64,000 nucleotides of DNA from an uncultured SAR86 cluster bacterium (GTDB lineage: Bacteria; Pseudomonadota; Gammaproteobacteria; Magnimaribacterales; Magnimaribacteraceae). A program made the position numbers and the translations under genes. Position 1 is the stretch's first letter. Each line of letters opens with the position of its first letter. The DNA lies in NCBI GenBank assembly GCA_902604855.1, contig CACLAF010000003.1, forward strand, positions 516 through 64,515, read 5' to 3'. Below are positions 15,706-22,251 of the stretch, piece by piece. The notes under the pieces were generated by a model that worked only from the letters and a program-made list of their open reading frames with translations, was not told the DNA's origin and did not search any database.

Positions 15706-16545
15706 ATGAATGTAAAAGTATATGGTTTTACTCACTCTCCTTGGGTACAAGCAGTCTTACTTGCCCTATATGACAAAGAACTAGAATACGATCTTTATGT
15801 AAGACCGCCTTATGAAGTTTTCAAAAAATGGGGCGTCTATATGCCTGCAGTTTCGCTAAATGAAGAACCTTGGGAAATTGAGTCAACACAAATACTGACT
15901 AAATTAGGTTATAAATCTATCTTTGCCGATGAACTTAAAGCTGCCAATAATTCTTGGCAAGGAGTTCTGCATAGAACTGATAATCCATTCAGGTTCTTTC
16001 TAAACTTTGCTCGCGGAGGTCAGATTTCTGGATCTTTAATCAATAATACAGTAACTAACTTTCTTTTAAGTTTTGTTGCCTTCTATATGTTTATGTTAAT
16101 AAATATTGGAAAATGGACACTAAAACAAAAGGAACCTGATGACTTTGGTGACCAATTTTTATATTGGGAAAATATACTTTATGCTTCTAAATGTCCTTTT
16201 ATAGACGGCGAGAAGCCTGGAACTAGAGACTTTATTTTGTTTGGGGTAGTTCAATGTCATTCCAGCATTCCTGTTCCAGCGATCGATGCATTATTAAATG
16301 ATGAGAGGCTAAAAAATTTACGAAGATGGATATTAACCATGCAAAAAAGATTTCAGAAATATCCTTATCTTTACTCAGTTAAATATTTTGGATCTGATGC
16401 ATCTCAACCCAAAAATGCTGGAATTTTCCAAACGGGAGTATTTTTCATAGGGTTATTCATAATGGTTTTATTATTACCGATATCTATAGCCGCAGTGTTA
16501 AAATTAATGAGCAGGGTAGAGGATTACAGAATTAAAAATTTTTAG
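15706..16545 (+). CDS. Glutathione S-transferase-like protein with C-terminal membrane anchor
   Basis: N-terminal VYGFTHSPWVQAV, MPAV, ESTQI; C-domain FIDGEKPGTRDFILFG; hydrophobic tail. Confidence 0.65.
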   Translation: MNVKVYGFTHSPWVQAVLLALYDKELEYDLYVRPPYEVFKKWGVYMPAVSLNEEPWEIESTQILTKLGYKSIFADELKAANNSWQGVLHRTDNPFRFFLNFARGGQISGSLINNTVTNFLLSFVAFYMFMLINIGKWTLKQKEPDDFGDQFLYWENILYASKCPFIDGEKPGTRDFILFGVVQCHSSIPVPAIDALLNDERLKNLRRWILTMQKRFQKYPYLYSVKYFGSDASQPKNAGIFQTGVFFIGLFIMVLLLPISIAAVLKLMSRVEDYRIKNF

Positions 16546-16687
16546 TCTGATAATCTTTAAAAAGGAAAATATTCTTGAAGCAATACCTTTATCCCATAGC
16601 TTGAATACTAAGGCTATCTATGCGAAGAAAATTTTTAATCCCAAGGTCATCAATGATCAATTCTTTTTGTCGAAAAGAGGTAATGCT

Positions 16688-17881
16688 ATGAAAATTGCAA
16701 TTATAGGATCTGGAATATCAGGCCTCTCGGCTGCTTACTATTTATCCAGTGATCATGAAGTAGATTTATTTGAAAAAGATTTGAGACTGGGTGGGCATAC
16801 ACATACGCACACTTTAGAGCTTGAAAAGAGAATAAGAGTTGATTCAGGCTTCATCGTAATGAATGACAGGAATTATCCACTTCTTACAAAGTTGTTTTTG
16901 GATCTAGAGGTAGAACTTCATCCAACCTCAATGTCTTTCGGGGTTGAGACAGAGAATCTTAAGTGGTGCTCAAATGATTTCCTAAAATTAAGATTTTTAA
17001 ATAGTTTTAAAAAGATAAGACTTTTTCTTGAAATGATTAGATTCAATAATCTTGCATCTAATGTTGAGACAAATTCTTCTGTTGAAAATTGGCTAAGAAA
17101 AAATAATTTTTCAGATTTCTTCATTGCTAACTACATACTCCCTATGTCCTCATCGATATGGTCGTCATCTCAAGAATCAATAAAAAGATTTCCCATGAAA
17201 TCACTATCAAGTTTTTTTAAAAACCATGGTCTTTTAGATTTAATTAAAAGGCCACAATGGTTCACAGTCCTAGGGGGAAGTGATAACTACATAGAAAAAA
17301 TAATTAACGTCTCTGATATAAATAATGTTATCACTAATGCTGAACTGCTTATAAAGAGAGAAGGAAATAAAGTATCACTTCAAAATAAAAGCGTAACAAG
17401 CCAGTATGATGTATTAATTTTTGCCTGTCATGCTAATCAAATCCAAGAAATACTTACTGATATTTCTCCAAAGGAGGCTGAAATCTTATCTATGTTTGAA
17501 TACACCAGCAATAATGTGTTGCTTCATGATGATAAAAATCTTATGCCAAAAGAAGAATCTCTTTGGTCCTCTTGGAACTCTTTTAAAAGTAAAAACTATG
17601 ATTATGTTACTTATTGGATGAATAATTTACAAAAATTGGATACAGAAAAAGAAATTTTTGTAACGTTAGGTAATTGCCCTGAAATAGATCAAGAAAGAGT
17701 TTTTAAAAAAATTTGTTATGAGCATCCTTTGTACAGTGAAAATACTCTTGAAGGACAAAAATACCTTAAATCTATGCAAGGGGAAAATAATACATATTTT
17801 GTTGGTGCACATCTGGGCTATGGATTCCATGAAGATGGTATAAAATCAACGAATGAATTGTTAAAAAATTTTAATGAATAA
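16688..17881 (+). CDS. FAD-dependent oxidoreductase (COG2907; UfaD-like fatty-acid desaturase)
   Basis: MKIAIIGSGISGL, RLGGHTHT, VDSGFIV.N.RNYP, TYWMNNLQ, YEHP, GYGFHEDG; ATG at 16688 after AGAGG. Confidence 0.88.
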   Translation: MKIAIIGSGISGLSAAYYLSSDHEVDLFEKDLRLGGHTHTHTLELEKRIRVDSGFIVMNDRNYPLLTKLFLDLEVELHPTSMSFGVETENLKWCSNDFLKLRFLNSFKKIRLFLEMIRFNNLASNVETNSSVENWLRKNNFSDFFIANYILPMSSSIWSSSQESIKRFPMKSLSSFFKNHGLLDLIKRPQWFTVLGGSDNYIEKIINVSDINNVITNAELLIKREGNKVSLQNKSVTSQYDVLIFACHANQIQEILTDISPKEAEILSMFEYTSNNVLLHDDKNLMPKEESLWSSWNSFKSKNYDYVTYWMNNLQKLDTEKEIFVTLGNCPEIDQERVFKKICYEHPLYSENTLEGQKYLKSMQGENNTYFVGAHLGYGFHEDGIKSTNELLKNFNE

Positions 17882-18614
17882 TACAAGATTAAGATTCTTT
17901 GATGGTGCTGTATTTCACAAAAGAGTGGGATCTAAGACGCACAAGTTTAGATATACATATAAATCAACTTTCATTGAAGAGGTCTATGATTTCAATTCAG
18001 AAAGTTTTCTATATGCACACTCAAAGATTTTGAGTTTCGAAAAAAAATACTCTGACATGTCAGAAAAGGTTATTGAGAATATGAGATTATTTATTAAAAA
18101 AAATAATATTGATTCTGATGCATGTCGTATTAACTTATTGAGAACTCCAAACATAGGTTTTATTAAATCTTTCAACCCTGTATGTTTTTGGTTTTTAGAA
18201 ACTGATGAAGGCTGCAAATTTTTTACTGCAGAGGTTGAAAATACTTTCCACGAAAAACAAATGTACGTCATAGAGAATAAAGGAGATACAATTTCTCAAA
18301 ATATATGGTTGGAAGTGAAGAAAAATATGTATGTTTCGCCGTTTGCAGAAAAATCTGGATTTTATAAATTTAATTTATCTAGTGATCCTTTTAAAATAAA
18401 GATAAATCAATTTAATAAAGAAAAAAAAGCAGAAATAGTTACAAATATTAGGGGATCAATTATTCAAGTTAAAGGTCTAAGAAAATTTAGGTTTTATATG
18501 GGATTGATTTCAAGTTCTCTACTTGTGCTTGTAAGAATTCATATTCAAGCATTCTTTCTTTGGTTGAAAGGATTCAAAATTTTTCCACATGGAAGTAACG
18601 GATATGCTGACTAA
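17874..18614 (+). CDS. DUF1365 family protein (UfaO-like)
   Basis: VFHKR...H.F.Y, FNPVCFWF, AEVENTF.E, K.MYVSPF, RIHIQA..LWLKG. Confidence 0.88.
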   Translation: MNNTRLRFFDGAVFHKRVGSKTHKFRYTYKSTFIEEVYDFNSESFLYAHSKILSFEKKYSDMSEKVIENMRLFIKKNNIDSDACRINLLRTPNIGFIKSFNPVCFWFLETDEGCKFFTAEVENTFHEKQMYVIENKGDTISQNIWLEVKKNMYVSPFAEKSGFYKFNLSSDPFKIKINQFNKEKKAEIVTNIRGSIIQVKGLRKFRFYMGLISSSLLVLVRIHIQAFFLWLKGFKIFPHGSNGYAD

Positions 18615-19767
18615 AGTCATTCAAAATTTTTTAAATAAAAATATCGGAAAATTAGAGAGAGGTAATCTTTCTTTAATTCTTCCAAATGAGAAAAAAATTC
18701 AATTAGGAGATAACCTAGACTCTCTAGAAATTCGTTTTAACTCATGGCTTGGTATATGGCTTATCTTAAGACGGGGTGCTTTAGGACTGACTGAAGGATA
18801 CATGAAAAGCTATTGGCAAACAGATAAATTAATTGAATTGATGGATTACCTTCCTAAAAATTTAAACGCGCTTTCAAAAATCGCAAATGGAATGCTTTTT
18901 TTTAATATCTTCGCAAAAATTAATCACTTCCTTAATAAAAATACTATCAAAGGAAGCAGAAAAAATATTGAAGCACACTACGATCTAGGTAATGACTTTT
19001 TTAGTCTTTGGCTAGATAGCACTATGACTTATTCTTCGGGAATATTTTATAAAGATACAAAAACCCTTTGTGAAGCTCAGAATAATAAATATCAATCAAT
19101 CTTGGATTTACTGGATTTAAAAGAGGGATCGAAAATACTTGAAATCGGATGTGGCTGGGGAGGATTCCTAGAATATGCATCCAAAAGAGGTTTTGATGTT
19201 AAGGGAATAACAATATCGCCAAGTCAATATGAGTTTGCAAAAACTAGGCTTCGAAAAATTAAGGAATACCCTGAGATAGAGCTTATAGATTATAGGAAAG
19301 TTTCGGGAAAATATGATGCTATTGTTTCGATTGAAATGTTCGAGGCTGTTGGCTCGCAATATTGGGATACATTTTTTTCTAAAATTAAATCATTATTAAA
19401 AAAAGATGGTAAAGCAGCTATCCAAACTATAACTATTGGAGACCATTTATTTGAATACTATAAAAATAATCCAGATTTTATTCAGACATATATTTTTCCT
19501 GGAGGTATGCTTGCCAGTGATCAAATAATTCATAAACTTGCCAAAAAAAATGAACTCAAATCAGAAATCCAAATAGATTTTTCTCAATCTTATGCAAAAA
19601 CATTAGAGACATGGTTCTACAATTTTCAAAAATACTGGCAGCAAATCGAAACTTTAAACTTCGATAAAAAATTTAAGAATACTTGGGATATGTATTTAGC
19701 TTATTGTAGAGGCGGGTTCTTAAATGAAAGAATCTCTGTTTCACAATATTTATTGGAAAATAAATGA
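18604..19767 (+). CDS. cfa: Cyclopropane-fatty-acid synthase family SAM methyltransferase (Cfa/UfaM-like)
   Basis: NIEAHYDLGNDFF, MTYSS, LEIGCGWG, SIEMFEAVG, FIQTYIFPGG, YLAYC..GF. Start is 18604 or 18589. Confidence 0.9.
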   Translation: MLTKVIQNFLNKNIGKLERGNLSLILPNEKKIQLGDNLDSLEIRFNSWLGIWLILRRGALGLTEGYMKSYWQTDKLIELMDYLPKNLNALSKIANGMLFFNIFAKINHFLNKNTIKGSRKNIEAHYDLGNDFFSLWLDSTMTYSSGIFYKDTKTLCEAQNNKYQSILDLLDLKEGSKILEIGCGWGGFLEYASKRGFDVKGITISPSQYEFAKTRLRKIKEYPEIELIDYRKVSGKYDAIVSIEMFEAVGSQYWDTFFSKIKSLLKKDGKAAIQTITIGDHLFEYYKNNPDFIQTYIFPGGMLASDQIIHKLAKKNELKSEIQIDFSQSYAKTLETWFYNFQKYWQQIETLNFDKKFKNTWDMYLAYCRGGFLNERISVSQYLLENK

Positions 19768-20777
19768 CAAAAATAATATTACGTCTAACAGAAAGAGGAT
19801 TTGTTCCAGATTTTTTAATAAAAAAAGCCGCTCTTTATTTATCTAAGAAGCGGCTCTCGGAACCAAGTATCGGCAAGAATAAGGAAAAAGTAATCAAATT
19901 TCTGTCAGATGGAGATGTTGCTGAAAAAACAGTTGATGCAAACGAACAGCACTATGAGGTACCTCCGGAATTTTTTAAAAAGGTTCTTGGCAAGAGATTG
20001 AAATATTCTTGTTCACTATTTAATAATCAAATCACTTTAGACGAAGCTGAAGATGAAATGTTGGAACTTTATATTGAGCGAGCTGATATTTCAAATGGTC
20101 AGGAAATCTTAGATCTTGGTTGCGGATGGGGTAGTTTTTCTTTATTTGCTGCAGCAAAATTTCCCGACTCAAAATTTACGTCATTAAGTAATTCAATTGA
20201 TCAAATTAATTTTATTAATAATCAGGCGGAAAAAAGAAATTTAAAAAACATAAATACTATTAAGATGGACGCAAATAACCTTAGTTTAAATAAGAAATTT
20301 GATCGTATCATTTCTATTGAGATGTTTGAGCATTTGAGGAACTACAAATCAATACTATCTTCGTTAAGTGATGTTCTTTTAGATGAAGGAAAAGTGTTCA
20401 TACATATTTTTTGTAATAAGAAATTAGCTTATCTTTATGAAGTAAAGAATGACCTTGACTGGATGACTAAATATTTTTTTTCAGGAGGAATAATGCCAAG
20501 TAAGGATATTTTCAGTCACTTTGATGAGCACTTAAGTCTAATTAATCAGTGGGACGTAAATGGCAATCATTACTCAAAGACTTCAAAGGGATGGCTTGAA
20601 AACCTTTACAAAAATAAACAAGAAGTGATGGACATATTCAGAGATCATTACAATGACCCAGTAGTTTGGTTTAATAGATGGAGAATATTTTTTCTCACGT
20701 GCGAAGTTTTTTTTGCGATTAATAAAGGAAATGAATACTTTGTTTCGCATTACCTTTTTGAAAAGACTAATTCATAA
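19764..20777 (+). CDS. Second CFA/CMAS-family SAM methyltransferase
   Basis: ANEQHYEVP, LKYSCS, LDLGCGWGS, SIEMFEH, WMTKYFFSGGIMPS. Confidence 0.88.
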   Translation: MTKIILRLTERGFVPDFLIKKAALYLSKKRLSEPSIGKNKEKVIKFLSDGDVAEKTVDANEQHYEVPPEFFKKVLGKRLKYSCSLFNNQITLDEAEDEMLELYIERADISNGQEILDLGCGWGSFSLFAAAKFPDSKFTSLSNSIDQINFINNQAEKRNLKNINTIKMDANNLSLNKKFDRIISIEMFEHLRNYKSILSSLSDVLLDEGKVFIHIFCNKKLAYLYEVKNDLDWMTKYFFSGGIMPSKDIFSHFDEHLSLINQWDVNGNHYSKTSKGWLENLYKNKQEVMDIFRDHYNDPVVWFNRWRIFFLTCEVFFAINKGNEYFVSHYLFEKTNS

Positions 20778-20804
20778 TTTAAATATCTTTGGGAGATTTT
20801 TGTT

Positions 20805-20846
20805 TGATGGATTAGACGGATTCAAAGCTTAATGAATGTATTAAGA
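20805..20846 (-). repeat. Possible heavily eroded copy of the tRNA-Ile2 3' half
   Basis: TGATGG...GGATTCAAAGCT...AATGTATTAAGA aligns by hand to TGGTGG...GGACTCGAACCT...AATGGATTATGA (about 25/44 with two gaps). Confidence 0.35.
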
Positions 20847-20894
20847 ATAAACTTGCTTTAACCACAAAATAATCAGCGTGTTAAGATAATCTAA

Positions 20895-21260
20895 GTGAGA
20901 AATTTTCCAAAAAAATTAATTTTAGTATCCTGTTTACCTATGATATTAACGTGTCAATCAATGAATGAGAATCTTTACAAGAATGATCATGATGTTCTCA
21001 CGATTGATCGTTCTCAGGTTAATAATCTGAATTGTGTTTATCTTTATAATACCGAAAAGAGAGAAAGTGGATGGAATAATTCTTTTGCAACTGCAAACGC
21101 ATTACGTGTCTTGAAAGATCAAGTTAAAGTGGCTGGAGGAAATGCCATTGTAATAAGAGATATATATTCTTCAGAAGATTATAGGGATGGTTATAAATTA
21201 GATGCAGCAGGTGTATATATTGATGTCTATAAATGTCCTGAAAATAGAATTAAGGAATGA
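20895..21260 (+). CDS. Putative lipoprotein (DUF4156-like)
   Basis: Lipobox-like ILTC; C...LKDQ....GGNAIVI...VYKCP pattern. Confidence 0.6.
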   Translation: MRNFPKKLILVSCLPMILTCQSMNENLYKNDHDVLTIDRSQVNNLNCVYLYNTEKRESGWNNSFATANALRVLKDQVKVAGGNAIVIRDIYSSEDYRDGYKLDAAGVYIDVYKCPENRIKE

Positions 21261-21269
21261 TATTTTAAA

Positions 21270-21314
21270 TGGTAGGCCCGGGAGGACTCGAACCTTTGAC
21301 CAATGGATTATCAG
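21270..21314 (-). repeat. Direct repeat of the tRNA-Ile2 3' half (att-like scar)
   Basis: Matches 22175-22219 at 41/45 nt; spans the CCA end to the far edge of the anticodon loop; offset 905 bp. Confidence 0.9.
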
Positions 21315-21361
21315 GGCTATGTTCGATTAAGAGTCATTGGAGCAGTGGATTCTAATTGTAT

Positions 21362-22057
21362 TTATAAAATAGGATCAAAATGCTTTGTCACAACATAAGT
21401 TATTTCTCTATTAGTTGCTTCGATAATTTCAATACGAGTTCCCCTAAATCCTATAGTTTTTCCCTCATTAAGATCATATTGAACTTCTTGAGTGAAAAAA
21501 GGTCTCAAATATTTCCCTTCAGACACTTCTCTGTATAAGAACTTTACATAATCTCCAACTCTTCCATTATAAATTAATTGCTGTTTAACATTTGGTTGAC
21601 TCAAATCAAAATATTTTTTTTCTATAATCAAATTGTTTGGGATGCAACGCTGAGTTGCTACAACCACACATAAACCCTTGTCTGTATAAGTTCCTCTATA
21701 AAATGCAACATTTGGTATTGGTCCATTTATTGATAATGCTCCAAAGGCTGATATATTTTCAAATTGATAGGTCACAATTCCGTCTTGATTTATTGTGACC
21801 GGCTTGAGAGTTTGCGAAGGAAATACATAATATAAACCAGCAAAATTAGGCTCAGTTCTATATTCTTCATTTATTGAAATTGAGTCTACGTATGATAAGA
21901 CGCTGTATTCAACTAGAGTATTTCCAAGCTCTTGAGATATTTCCGTATTTAAAGACGGTGTTTTTATAACTTCTTTATTGAATGTTACAAGTGTCTGAGG
22001 AATAGATGCACATGAAGTTATAAAGATTAAAACAAGTAACTGAAAATATTTGATCAC
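21362..22057 (-). CDS. Putative lipoprotein
   Basis: ITSC lipobox; C-terminal QQLIYNGR...KFLYRE...RP.FTQEVQYDL....IGFRG.RIEII.ATN..I.Y.V domain; function unknown. Confidence 0.75.
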   Translation of the reverse strand: MIKYFQLLVLIFITSCASIPQTLVTFNKEVIKTPSLNTEISQELGNTLVEYSVLSYVDSISINEEYRTEPNFAGLYYVFPSQTLKPVTINQDGIVTYQFENISAFGALSINGPIPNVAFYRGTYTDKGLCVVVATQRCIPNNLIIEKKYFDLSQPNVKQQLIYNGRVGDYVKFLYREVSEGKYLRPFFTQEVQYDLNEGKTIGFRGTRIEIIEATNREITYVVTKHFDPIL

Positions 22058-22101
22058 TAATAGATAATGCCATATTAATAGATTAAAAAATACTTATTAA
22101 A

Positions 22102-22150
22102 TGAGAACAAAGATTACCTGTTCTCACCTGTACTCATTTTCTAAGAACAG
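22102..22150. repeat. Cluster of four (C)TGT[T/A]CT[C/T]A motifs, direct and inverted; terminator or recombinase arm sites
   Basis: Inverted at 22102-22109, tandem ACCTGTTCTC/ACCTGTACTC at 22116-22135, inverted at 22142-22150. Confidence 0.6.
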
Positions 22151-22174
22151 TAAGACTTCGGAAACACTTCAAAA

Positions 22175-22251
22175 TGGTGGGCCCGGGAGGACTCGAACCT
22201 CCGACCAATGGATTATGAGTCCACTGCTCTAACCAACTGAGCTACAGGCCC
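22175..22251 (-). tRNA. ileX: tRNA-Ile2 (anticodon CAT, lysidine type)
   Basis: GGGCCTGTAGCTCAGTTGGTTAGAGCAGTGGACTCATAATCCATTGGTCGGAGGTTCGAGTCCTCCCGGGCCCACCA; paired G1-C72 (not initiator), C4-G69/C5-G68 TilS determinants, position after rpoD. Confidence 0.9.

Follow-up and report, generated by a model that had tools for sequence, protein, structure and literature searches.

Streamlined ocean bacteria carry few plasmids, prophages and transposons, yet have large pangenomes, and a locus in an uncultured SAR86 cluster bacterium raises the question of how single genes may travel among them. The locus lies in a stretch of 64,000 nucleotides (positions 516 to 64,515 of contig CACLAF010000003.1, assembly GCA_902604855.1), which is referred to as the window throughout. 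A tRNA gene is there accompanied, 905 bp away, by a partial copy of itself, and a single predicted lipoprotein gene, c35, is enclosed between the two. The answer that we favour from comparative sequence analysis is that the 860 bp between the copies (21315–22174) are probably a discrete mobile cassette without a recombinase of its own, inserted in the anticodon loop of the tRNA gene by an enzyme that would act in trans.

The tRNA gene, tRNA(CAT), is located at 22175–22251 on the minus strand (ARAGORN; Rfam tRNA model, 75.5 bits), directly after the rpoD stop codon, and its synteny at this position indicates that it is probably tRNA-Ile2. The assembly (G000; 1.36 Mb, 83% complete) has three CAT tRNAs, of which this is one, and its gene is 100% identical in all congeners in which it was found whole. 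The partial copy (21267–21314, plus strand) comprises the tRNA 3' half plus three flanking bases, with 44 of 48 positions identical. Identity spans the 7-nt anticodon loop and ends at the 5' edge of the loop; one of the four changes falls within this loop overlap. A 20-nt core of the repeat occurs exactly twice in the 64 kb, while none is expected from 100 shuffles, and the whole 1.36-Mb assembly holds only two copies. An earlier reading of the window from its letters alone (the sequence-only reading) had reported the repeat as 41 of 45 positions, stopping at the edge of the anticodon loop and enclosing one lipoprotein gene and nothing else. All of this agrees with our alignments and with the single open reading frame (ORF) found between the copies, and the core proves unique to them.

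The enclosed gene c35 (21362–22057, minus strand) is co-oriented with the tRNA and encodes a predicted lipoprotein of 231 aa, as judged from its ORF and lipobox. It matches no Pfam family, and the 86 homologues in its family of ~230-aa proteins are all unnamed. The AlphaFold2 (AF2) model is all-beta with a predicted local distance difference test (pLDDT) score of 93, and no clear PDB match was obtained with Foldseek and VIA-align (best Z 5.6). Homologues at 52–68% identity are encoded elsewhere, where neither tRNA copies nor arms (the conserved terminal modules described below) accompany them. The protein was found neither in 24 congeners nor in 16 further genomes of the order, so that the gene is not a fixed resident of this position in all relatives.

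A c35 homologue with 98% identity is encoded in GCA_902635615.1 (L143), which represents a different species. The gene is part of an equivalent unit with the same arms and a period of 906 bp, placed between the stop codon of the neighbouring gene c7 with a displaced tRNA half on one side and the tRNA on the other. The accessory genes that separate c7 from the unit in the window, a four-gene cluster of the cyclopropane fatty acid (CFA) type and a second lipoprotein gene, c32, are absent from L143, where the unit comes directly after the c7 stop codon. At the nucleotide level the window and L143 are 97.7% identical over the unit, 98.7% over the gene and 95.7% over the right arm, compared with 79.2% for rpoD, 74.3% for dnaG and 79.3% for c7. 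The identity profile, taken in 75-nt steps, runs at 96–100% across 21351–22175, is at ~80% immediately past the tRNA on the rpoD side, and gives way to unrelated sequence left of the displaced copy. The displaced tRNA-half copies of the two genomes are mutated differently, which is what one would expect of copies that each stem from the tRNA of the recipient. By these identities, a unit reaching exactly from repeat to repeat has moved recently across a species boundary of ~75–80% nucleotide identity. The step in the profile also argues against a single ancestor of all cassette-bearing lineages in which the cassette was already present, and it excludes a large recombination tract through which L143 and the window would have the entire region in common. 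A larger unit of 1.7 kb is likewise 91% identical among G007, G002 and several metagenome contigs, versus 79–84% for rpoD.

Small units at a tRNA could also be deletion remnants of larger integrase-bearing elements, formed in place and immobile. Internal deletion does occur, as in contig L054, where a 1.2-kb derivative of the 1.7-kb unit has lost a helix-turn-helix (HTH) gene and kept the arm end. The genus also has ordinary islands with an integrase, located at tRNA-Val, and degenerate tycheposon remnants with partial tRNAs are described in Prochlorococcus (10.1101/2020.12.28.424599). However, the 860-bp unit is found with the same ends in two species and in different array contexts, at 97.7% identity against 74–79% in the flanks, and the steps in identity coincide with the repeats, which excludes a remnant deleted in situ for the 905-bp unit. 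Moreover, the 44 distinct units that we collected contain no integrase fragment, and random deletion would leave both arms in place far less often than is observed. We therefore regard a remnant origin of the small units as very improbable; for the unit in the window, the concern that it might be what is left of one large integrase-bearing element is answered by the same-ended unit in L143.

The gene content of the locus was compared among congeners. The set comprises 25 genomes, in 23 of which the rpoD-tRNA(CAT) locus was located; 20 loci were compared, and the gene order was taken from 19 congeners. Between the DUF411 gene (c1) and the tRNA the content varies in discrete units, with at least seven states among the congeners, as the sequence-only reading had predicted for such a comparison. 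The base state c1-c7-tRNA, with c7 encoding 279 aa, is found in about ten genomes, and at its junction in G020 a single base separates the c7 stop codon from the tRNA 3' end. The four-gene CFA-type cluster is an addition in G008 and G015. In G019 the sole extra gene, adjacent to the tRNA, is a homologue of the 121-aa lipoprotein gene c32; in G012 and G013 this position is taken by a 322-aa gene. One 1.7-kb unit lies between near-exact tRNA-half copies in G002. The closed genome G007 contains two units of 5.8 kb and 1.7 kb, bordered by exact 48/49-nt copies, and no recombinase is present among their seven genes.

Two further observations concern neighbours of the tRNA in these genomes. The 322-aa gene of G012 and G013 (L022, L025) is the membrane-protein gene of the common 1.7-kb cassette without tRNA copy, arm or HTH gene, and in G013 it is broken into two ORFs; it looks like a domesticated or decaying cassette. 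The c7 gene (15706–16545 in the window) falls into two divergent classes, with ~74% versus 86–99% protein identity where its neighbours show 88–99%, and it is missing from G002, G007 and G014, in which the displaced tRNA half comes after the DUF411 gene. Hence c7 itself may be exchangeable.

Taken at the level of gene content, the locus is an additive flexible genomic island that changes unit by unit. Islands of this kind have been described in Alteromonas as tRNA-side hotspots, whose cassettes carry partial tRNA repeats and are shared between species (PMC4898812), and the tRNA-Lys island of 'Ca. Methylopumilus' is described with units of 330 bp to 42 kb (PMC10872708). The present locus resembles them in its fixed position at the side of a tRNA, in its discrete cassettes bordered by partial tRNA repeats, and in cassette identity between distant genomes that exceeds that of the core; at the CFA cluster and at c32 no significant partial tRNA repeat was found.

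Metagenomes were scanned with a query of the tRNA half followed by non-tRNA sequence, yielding 83 marine contigs and two contigs of metagenome-assembled genomes (MAGs). From these and from the congeners, 46 complete copy-to-copy units were extracted, 44 of them distinct, with lengths of 486–6874 bp (median about 1.5 kb); 39 hold one or two ORFs. A left arm module of ~38 nt directly follows the anticodon loop, its conservation ending after ~36 nt (alignment A2, 30 arms), and a right arm module of ~80 nt abuts the tRNA 3' end, its conservation starting abruptly at a palindrome (alignment A3). In both alignments conservation breaks off where the cargo begins. The palindrome of the family spans 26 bp and is built from two 9-mers at fixed spacing, often with a second direct and a partial inverted 9-mer. 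The right arm exists in two sequence variants, between which the half-sites change together and the spacing is kept. A strict pattern for the right palindrome is matched in 32 of the 44 units compared with 3 of 820 control pieces taken from unit interiors, and one for the left arm in 30 of 44 compared with 1 of 820. Within arrays the arm-core-arm modules (~165 bp) recur in direct orientation.

The cargo of these units is diverse. Its 178 ORFs fall into 98 clusters, and Pfam matches include aminotransferases, dehydrogenases, a sulfatase, TetR regulators and an MFS transporter as well as DNA methyltransferases, ResIII, GmrSD-type, MORN and cadherin-like proteins. By a crude measure, about half of the cargo has hydrophobic N-termini. 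Co-orientation with the tRNA prevails, in 44 clusters versus 17 and in 17 of 20 single-gene units. The idea of an array of surface-protein genes, put forward for the window, fits the window itself; across the family it is too narrow, as enzymes, regulators and restriction-modification genes are also carried. The alignments thus delineate a large family of units with the same arms, fixed ends and unrelated cargo.

The window's unit belongs to this family, since nhmmer arm profiles made with it left out recognise both of its ends. The left arm (21315–21353, plus strand) is an imperfect palindrome of ~38 nt (E 6e-4). The right arm (22087–22174, plus strand; profile match 22087–22168, E 2e-13) contains the palindrome at 22102–22126, with 25 bp in the window and 26 bp in most relatives (12-2-12 geometry), followed by a second direct 9-mer at 22128–22136 and an inverted partial copy at 22143–22150, and then by a conserved stretch of ~22 nt reaching up to the tRNA 3' end. 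At its far end (21338–21348) the left arm holds, in inverted form, 10 nt of the tRNA 5' half (22220–22232), from the 5' strand of the D-stem/anticodon-stem; its beginning is similar to the 5' strand of the acceptor stem. The arm has the look of a degenerate tRNA 5' half that has been flipped. A folded hairpin comparable to attC was considered for this arm and rejected: 88.6% of cells pair, covariation is not above that of shuffles (130/500), and RNAalifold yields no structure.

Where, then, would the crossover take place? The 3'-half copies end at the anticodon loop, and on other contigs copies of the 5' half begin there, which identifies the 7-nt loop as the overlap common to both. Tyrosine integrases with tRNA genes as their targets usually have such an overlap in the anticodon loop. 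At empty sites such as that of L143, moreover, no arm exists before insertion, so the event must fall within the tRNA. In the mechanism that we propose, a circle carrying the right arm, the 48-nt tRNA core and the left arm would recombine with the tRNA at the 7-nt loop in the manner of Campbell. The core copy brought by the element, now the tRNA 3' half at 22175–22219, would rebuild the tRNA, and the resident 3' half would be displaced outward as the partial copy, which corresponds to the attL core. The enzyme would be supplied in trans, most likely as the tRNA-specific tyrosine integrase of a rarer autonomous relative, with the right-arm 9-mers serving as its arm or accessory sites. Later arrivals would stack next to the tRNA while older scars decay.

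The cassettes of the window and L143 appear to have left this cycle. In the window the displaced copy has a mutated loop overlap and the palindrome is one base shorter; in L143 the copy has an insertion within the loop overlap. Because of the mutated overlap the cassette is probably locked in place, and neither unit is probably excisable any longer.

The 5'-half copies belong to a second family of cassettes (~0.7–1.4 kb), which is found on the rpoD side of the tRNA in four contigs (L054:1241-2720, L069, L071 and L107). They are bordered by tRNA 5'-half copies beginning at the anticodon loop, and their arms are conserved with another motif, of the GTGTCA/TGACAC type. The window has no such cassettes, as rpoD abuts the tRNA.

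The postulated enzyme was searched for at several levels. No match to PF00589 or PF00239 is present in the window, in line with the sequence-only reading, which had recognised no integrase gene in the 64 kb. The assembly has one Xer-sized PF00589 match, on another contig, and no PF00239 match. PF00589 searches of the 25 congeners retrieved XerC/D-sized genes everywhere and scattered integrases of 400–490 aa, none of them at tRNA(CAT) and two of them part of ordinary tRNA-Val islands. Eight integrase seeds, compared by phmmer with 480 ORFs from the 83 contigs, gave no match, Pfam searches of 94 cargo representatives and 20 further proteins gave no tyrosine recombinase, and neither a tyrosine integrase nor a fragment of one was detected among the 44 distinct units and 98 cargo families. 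The 25 Pfam families listed for the 94 cargo representatives include no primase or polymerase of a replication module. Homologues of the cassette HTH protein are only further copies of that cassette. The suggestion that a tyrosine integrase might lie beside the same 45-mer elsewhere in the genome or in phages found no support in the assembly, the congeners, the contigs or IMG/VR.

Methodological failure is not the cause of this absence, because the same methods detect integrase islands at tRNA-Val: an island of ~10.4 kb in G007 (L037:1108-11613) and one of ~6.5 kb in G008 (L039:9415-16066), both with a tRNA half copy of 40–44 nt and an adjoining tyrosine integrase of 456–473 aa. In IMG/VR neither type of arm and no partial tRNA copy was found. 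The sole matches to the tRNA core were two T4-like phage fragments with a complete tRNA (L035:1874-1950 and L036:7551-7627; PhoH, gp32, gp59, DNA ligase), each with tRNA-Arg(TCT) and tRNA(CAT), the latter 77/77 identical to the host gene; the GC content also matches (0.35). These fragments likely reflect a phage-host link, with the phage tRNA being a whole gene and not an attachment site. A route by the host's Xer proteins, as used by integrative mobile elements exploiting Xer (IMEX), was rejected because the candidate dif site of the assembly (G000 contig C2 near 160641, minus strand, four mismatches to the E. coli consensus) is by eye unlike the anticodon-loop core or the junction.

A dedicated recombinase might be dispensable, with DNA from relatives being taken up and inserted by RecA-type recombination, through the 48-nt core of a circle in a Campbell-type event or through the ~165-bp modules in exchange between arrays, and with the arms conserved as homology anchors or expression signals. 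This explanation would account for the lack of a recombinase in cis and elsewhere in near-complete cassette-bearing genomes, it has a perfect homology patch in a tRNA that is 100% identical across the genus, and it draws on the direct arm-core-arm repeats within arrays. Nevertheless, 48 nt are short for RecA, and repeats that end exactly at the anticodon loop on both sides are the mark of a fixed crossover site and not of spread crossovers. Furthermore, the arms are conserved beside empty-site insertions such as that of L143, where no anchoring is possible, and L143 shows no raised identity into rpoD. We consider recombination of this type unlikely as the origin of the cassettes.

Another enzyme comes into question for the right-arm palindrome, which has the size and symmetry of the site of a small serine recombinase and keeps its spacing across the two variants while the half-sites change in step. 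In that case the palindrome would be the crossover site at which the enzyme excises or inserts cassettes or shuffles them between arrays; only their first entry into an empty tRNA would call for another activity. A candidate protein of 201 aa, of the resolvase/invertase type (PF00239, E 1.5e-38, plus HTH_7), is encoded in three units of 6–7 kb (L068, with the gene at L068:4806-5411, L078 and L124), at their left end and beside extra copies of the right-arm 9-mer. However, its gene is on only three of about 83 contigs, it is the tRNA, not the palindrome, that contains the junctions with native DNA, and a repressor operator would fit the palindrome equally well. As the cassette-bearing genomes G000, G002, G162 and G125 have no PF00239 gene, a crossover by a serine recombinase stays a minority reading that we judge quite improbable.

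Several points weigh against the trans-acting integrase that we favour. Searches of the window, the assembly, the 25 congeners, the 83 contigs and IMG/VR turned up no recombinase for the tRNA(CAT) site. In G162, a cassette-bearing genome that is 97% complete, the recombinases amount to two Xer-sized tyrosine enzymes, with none of the serine type. Neither a circular form nor an attP-only contig was observed. Some arrays have more mismatches in the partial copy nearer the tRNA than in the one farther away, and the c32 unit of the window has neither the family arms nor a significant repeat. Finally, the right arm lies downstream of the tRNA and upstream of co-oriented cargo, a position from which the arms could serve expression. 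As an intrinsic terminator the right arm gave no hit in a consensus scan and a fold z-score of -1.4; a terminator function and a role in cargo expression are both conceivable. Of the proposal in the sequence-only reading that units are added stepwise by a recombinase in trans, newest nearest the tRNA, the unit-wise change is thus confirmed, the order misfits some arrays, and the enzyme is inferred.

Comparable systems help to place the cassettes. The tycheposons of Prochlorococcus integrate at tRNAs, push older elements outward, leave partial tRNA copies and carry adaptive cargo (10.1101/2020.12.28.424599). The tRNA(CAT) locus shares with tycheposon islands a streamlined marine host, tRNA integration, stacking with partial tRNAs and repeats that end in the anticodon loop. 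In contrast to tycheposons, which measure 10–20 kb and encode an integrase and often a replication module, the present cassettes have neither and are ~10-fold smaller, and no tycheposon-like parent was found at tRNA(CAT). The cis-mobilizable elements (CIMEs) of streptococci are bounded by attachment (att) sites, lack recombination genes, stack in tandem and use the integrase of a related integrative and conjugative element (ICE). The missing recombination genes and the tandem stacking at one site recall the cassettes described here, but CIMEs are few, extend over kilobases to tens of kilobases and lie beside a helper ICE, whereas here hundreds of tiny cassettes occur with no helper in the same genome.

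With integrons the locus has in common mostly one-gene cassettes without a recombinase, a single entry end and a biased cargo orientation (44:17). The term integron-like, used in the sequence-only reading, holds as an analogy only: intI, attI and attC are all absent, and the border is a tRNA half with two arms. It is possible, if rather doubtful, that tRNA(CAT) anchors a dedicated gene-capture system that resembles an integron and is built differently, with att-only cassettes on the 3' side (~165-bp module) and the second family on the 5' side. Unlinked, rare recombinases (a tRNA-specific integrase for entry and possibly a serine recombinase at the 26-bp palindrome) would insert, excise and shuffle the cassettes, and the cargo would be expressed by read-through or from an arm promoter. 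If true, a standing pool of cassettes without recombinases would let ocean bacteria poor in mobile elements trade single genes.

The kind of island is already published, and the tRNA(CAT) cassettes leave the published picture of additive islands unchanged; the novelty lies in the lineage, in the tRNA and in the detailed structure of the cassette ends. As far as the accessible text of PMC4898812 and PMC10872708 goes, the present data differ in the conserved arms on the cassettes, in addressing the absence of a recombinase, in the second family on the 5' side and in units of mostly 0.5–2 kb. Variable regions bounded by tRNAs in D2472/SAR86 are mentioned as work in preparation in a 2026 preprint. 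The locus provides a concrete sub-kilobase unit of gene exchange with defined ends, which bears on single-gene traffic in streamlined bacteria, and the family of at least 44 distinct units carries envelope proteins, enzymes, regulators and restriction-modification genes. The arm-core-arm module can be used as a search key for the recombinase and for counting cassette traffic in single-cell genomes and long-read metagenomes.

Further from the tRNA, but still at this hotspot, the window contains other accessory genes. The c32 gene (20895–21260, plus strand) encodes a predicted lipoprotein of 121 aa (ORF and lipobox). G000 and G019 have the gene; G008 and G015, which possess the CFA cluster like G000, lack it. 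It shares 86% identity with its G019 homologue, below the 93% of rpoD. As the c32 stop codon is 6 nt from the displaced copy at 21267–21314, there is no room for a right arm beside it.

The sequence-only reading had placed a second, much decayed tRNA-half copy at about 20805–20846, enclosing c32 as another single-lipoprotein unit. The stretch (20805–20846, plus strand) reaches a local score of 18–20 against the tRNA half where the shuffle mean is 13–14, a value matched by 63–126 of 2000 shuffles (3–6%), and unrelated 120-nt pieces of the window score higher, at 22–24; it is also missed by the nhmmer junction profiles. The alignment itself is thus not above chance, and what speaks for a possible, strongly decayed copy is the comparative context. 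After the CFA stop codon the window continues with a short flank that also precedes the tRNA in G008 and G015, and then with the AT-shifted, tRNA-like stretch 20805–20846, and in G019 an equally decayed stretch that aligns with it comes right after the c7 stop codon. Congener comparison supports c32 as an insertion separate from its neighbours, and in view of this we treat it as an older, single-gene insertion of unspecified mode; the significant repeat and the arms that would make it a second cassette are lacking.

The four-gene accessory cluster (16601–20777, plus strand) encodes an amine-oxidase-like protein, a DUF1365 protein and two CFA-synthase-like proteins (Pfam CMAS match). This CFA/furan-fatty-acid-type cluster is found in only three of the 25 congeners, G000, G008 and G015, and comparison of the junction sequences revealed no recognisable repeat or att scar at its left edge. 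In another marine lineage (L129–L134) a c35 homologue with 55% identity is encoded directly downstream of a CMAS-family methyltransferase, a neighbourhood that hints at a functional link.

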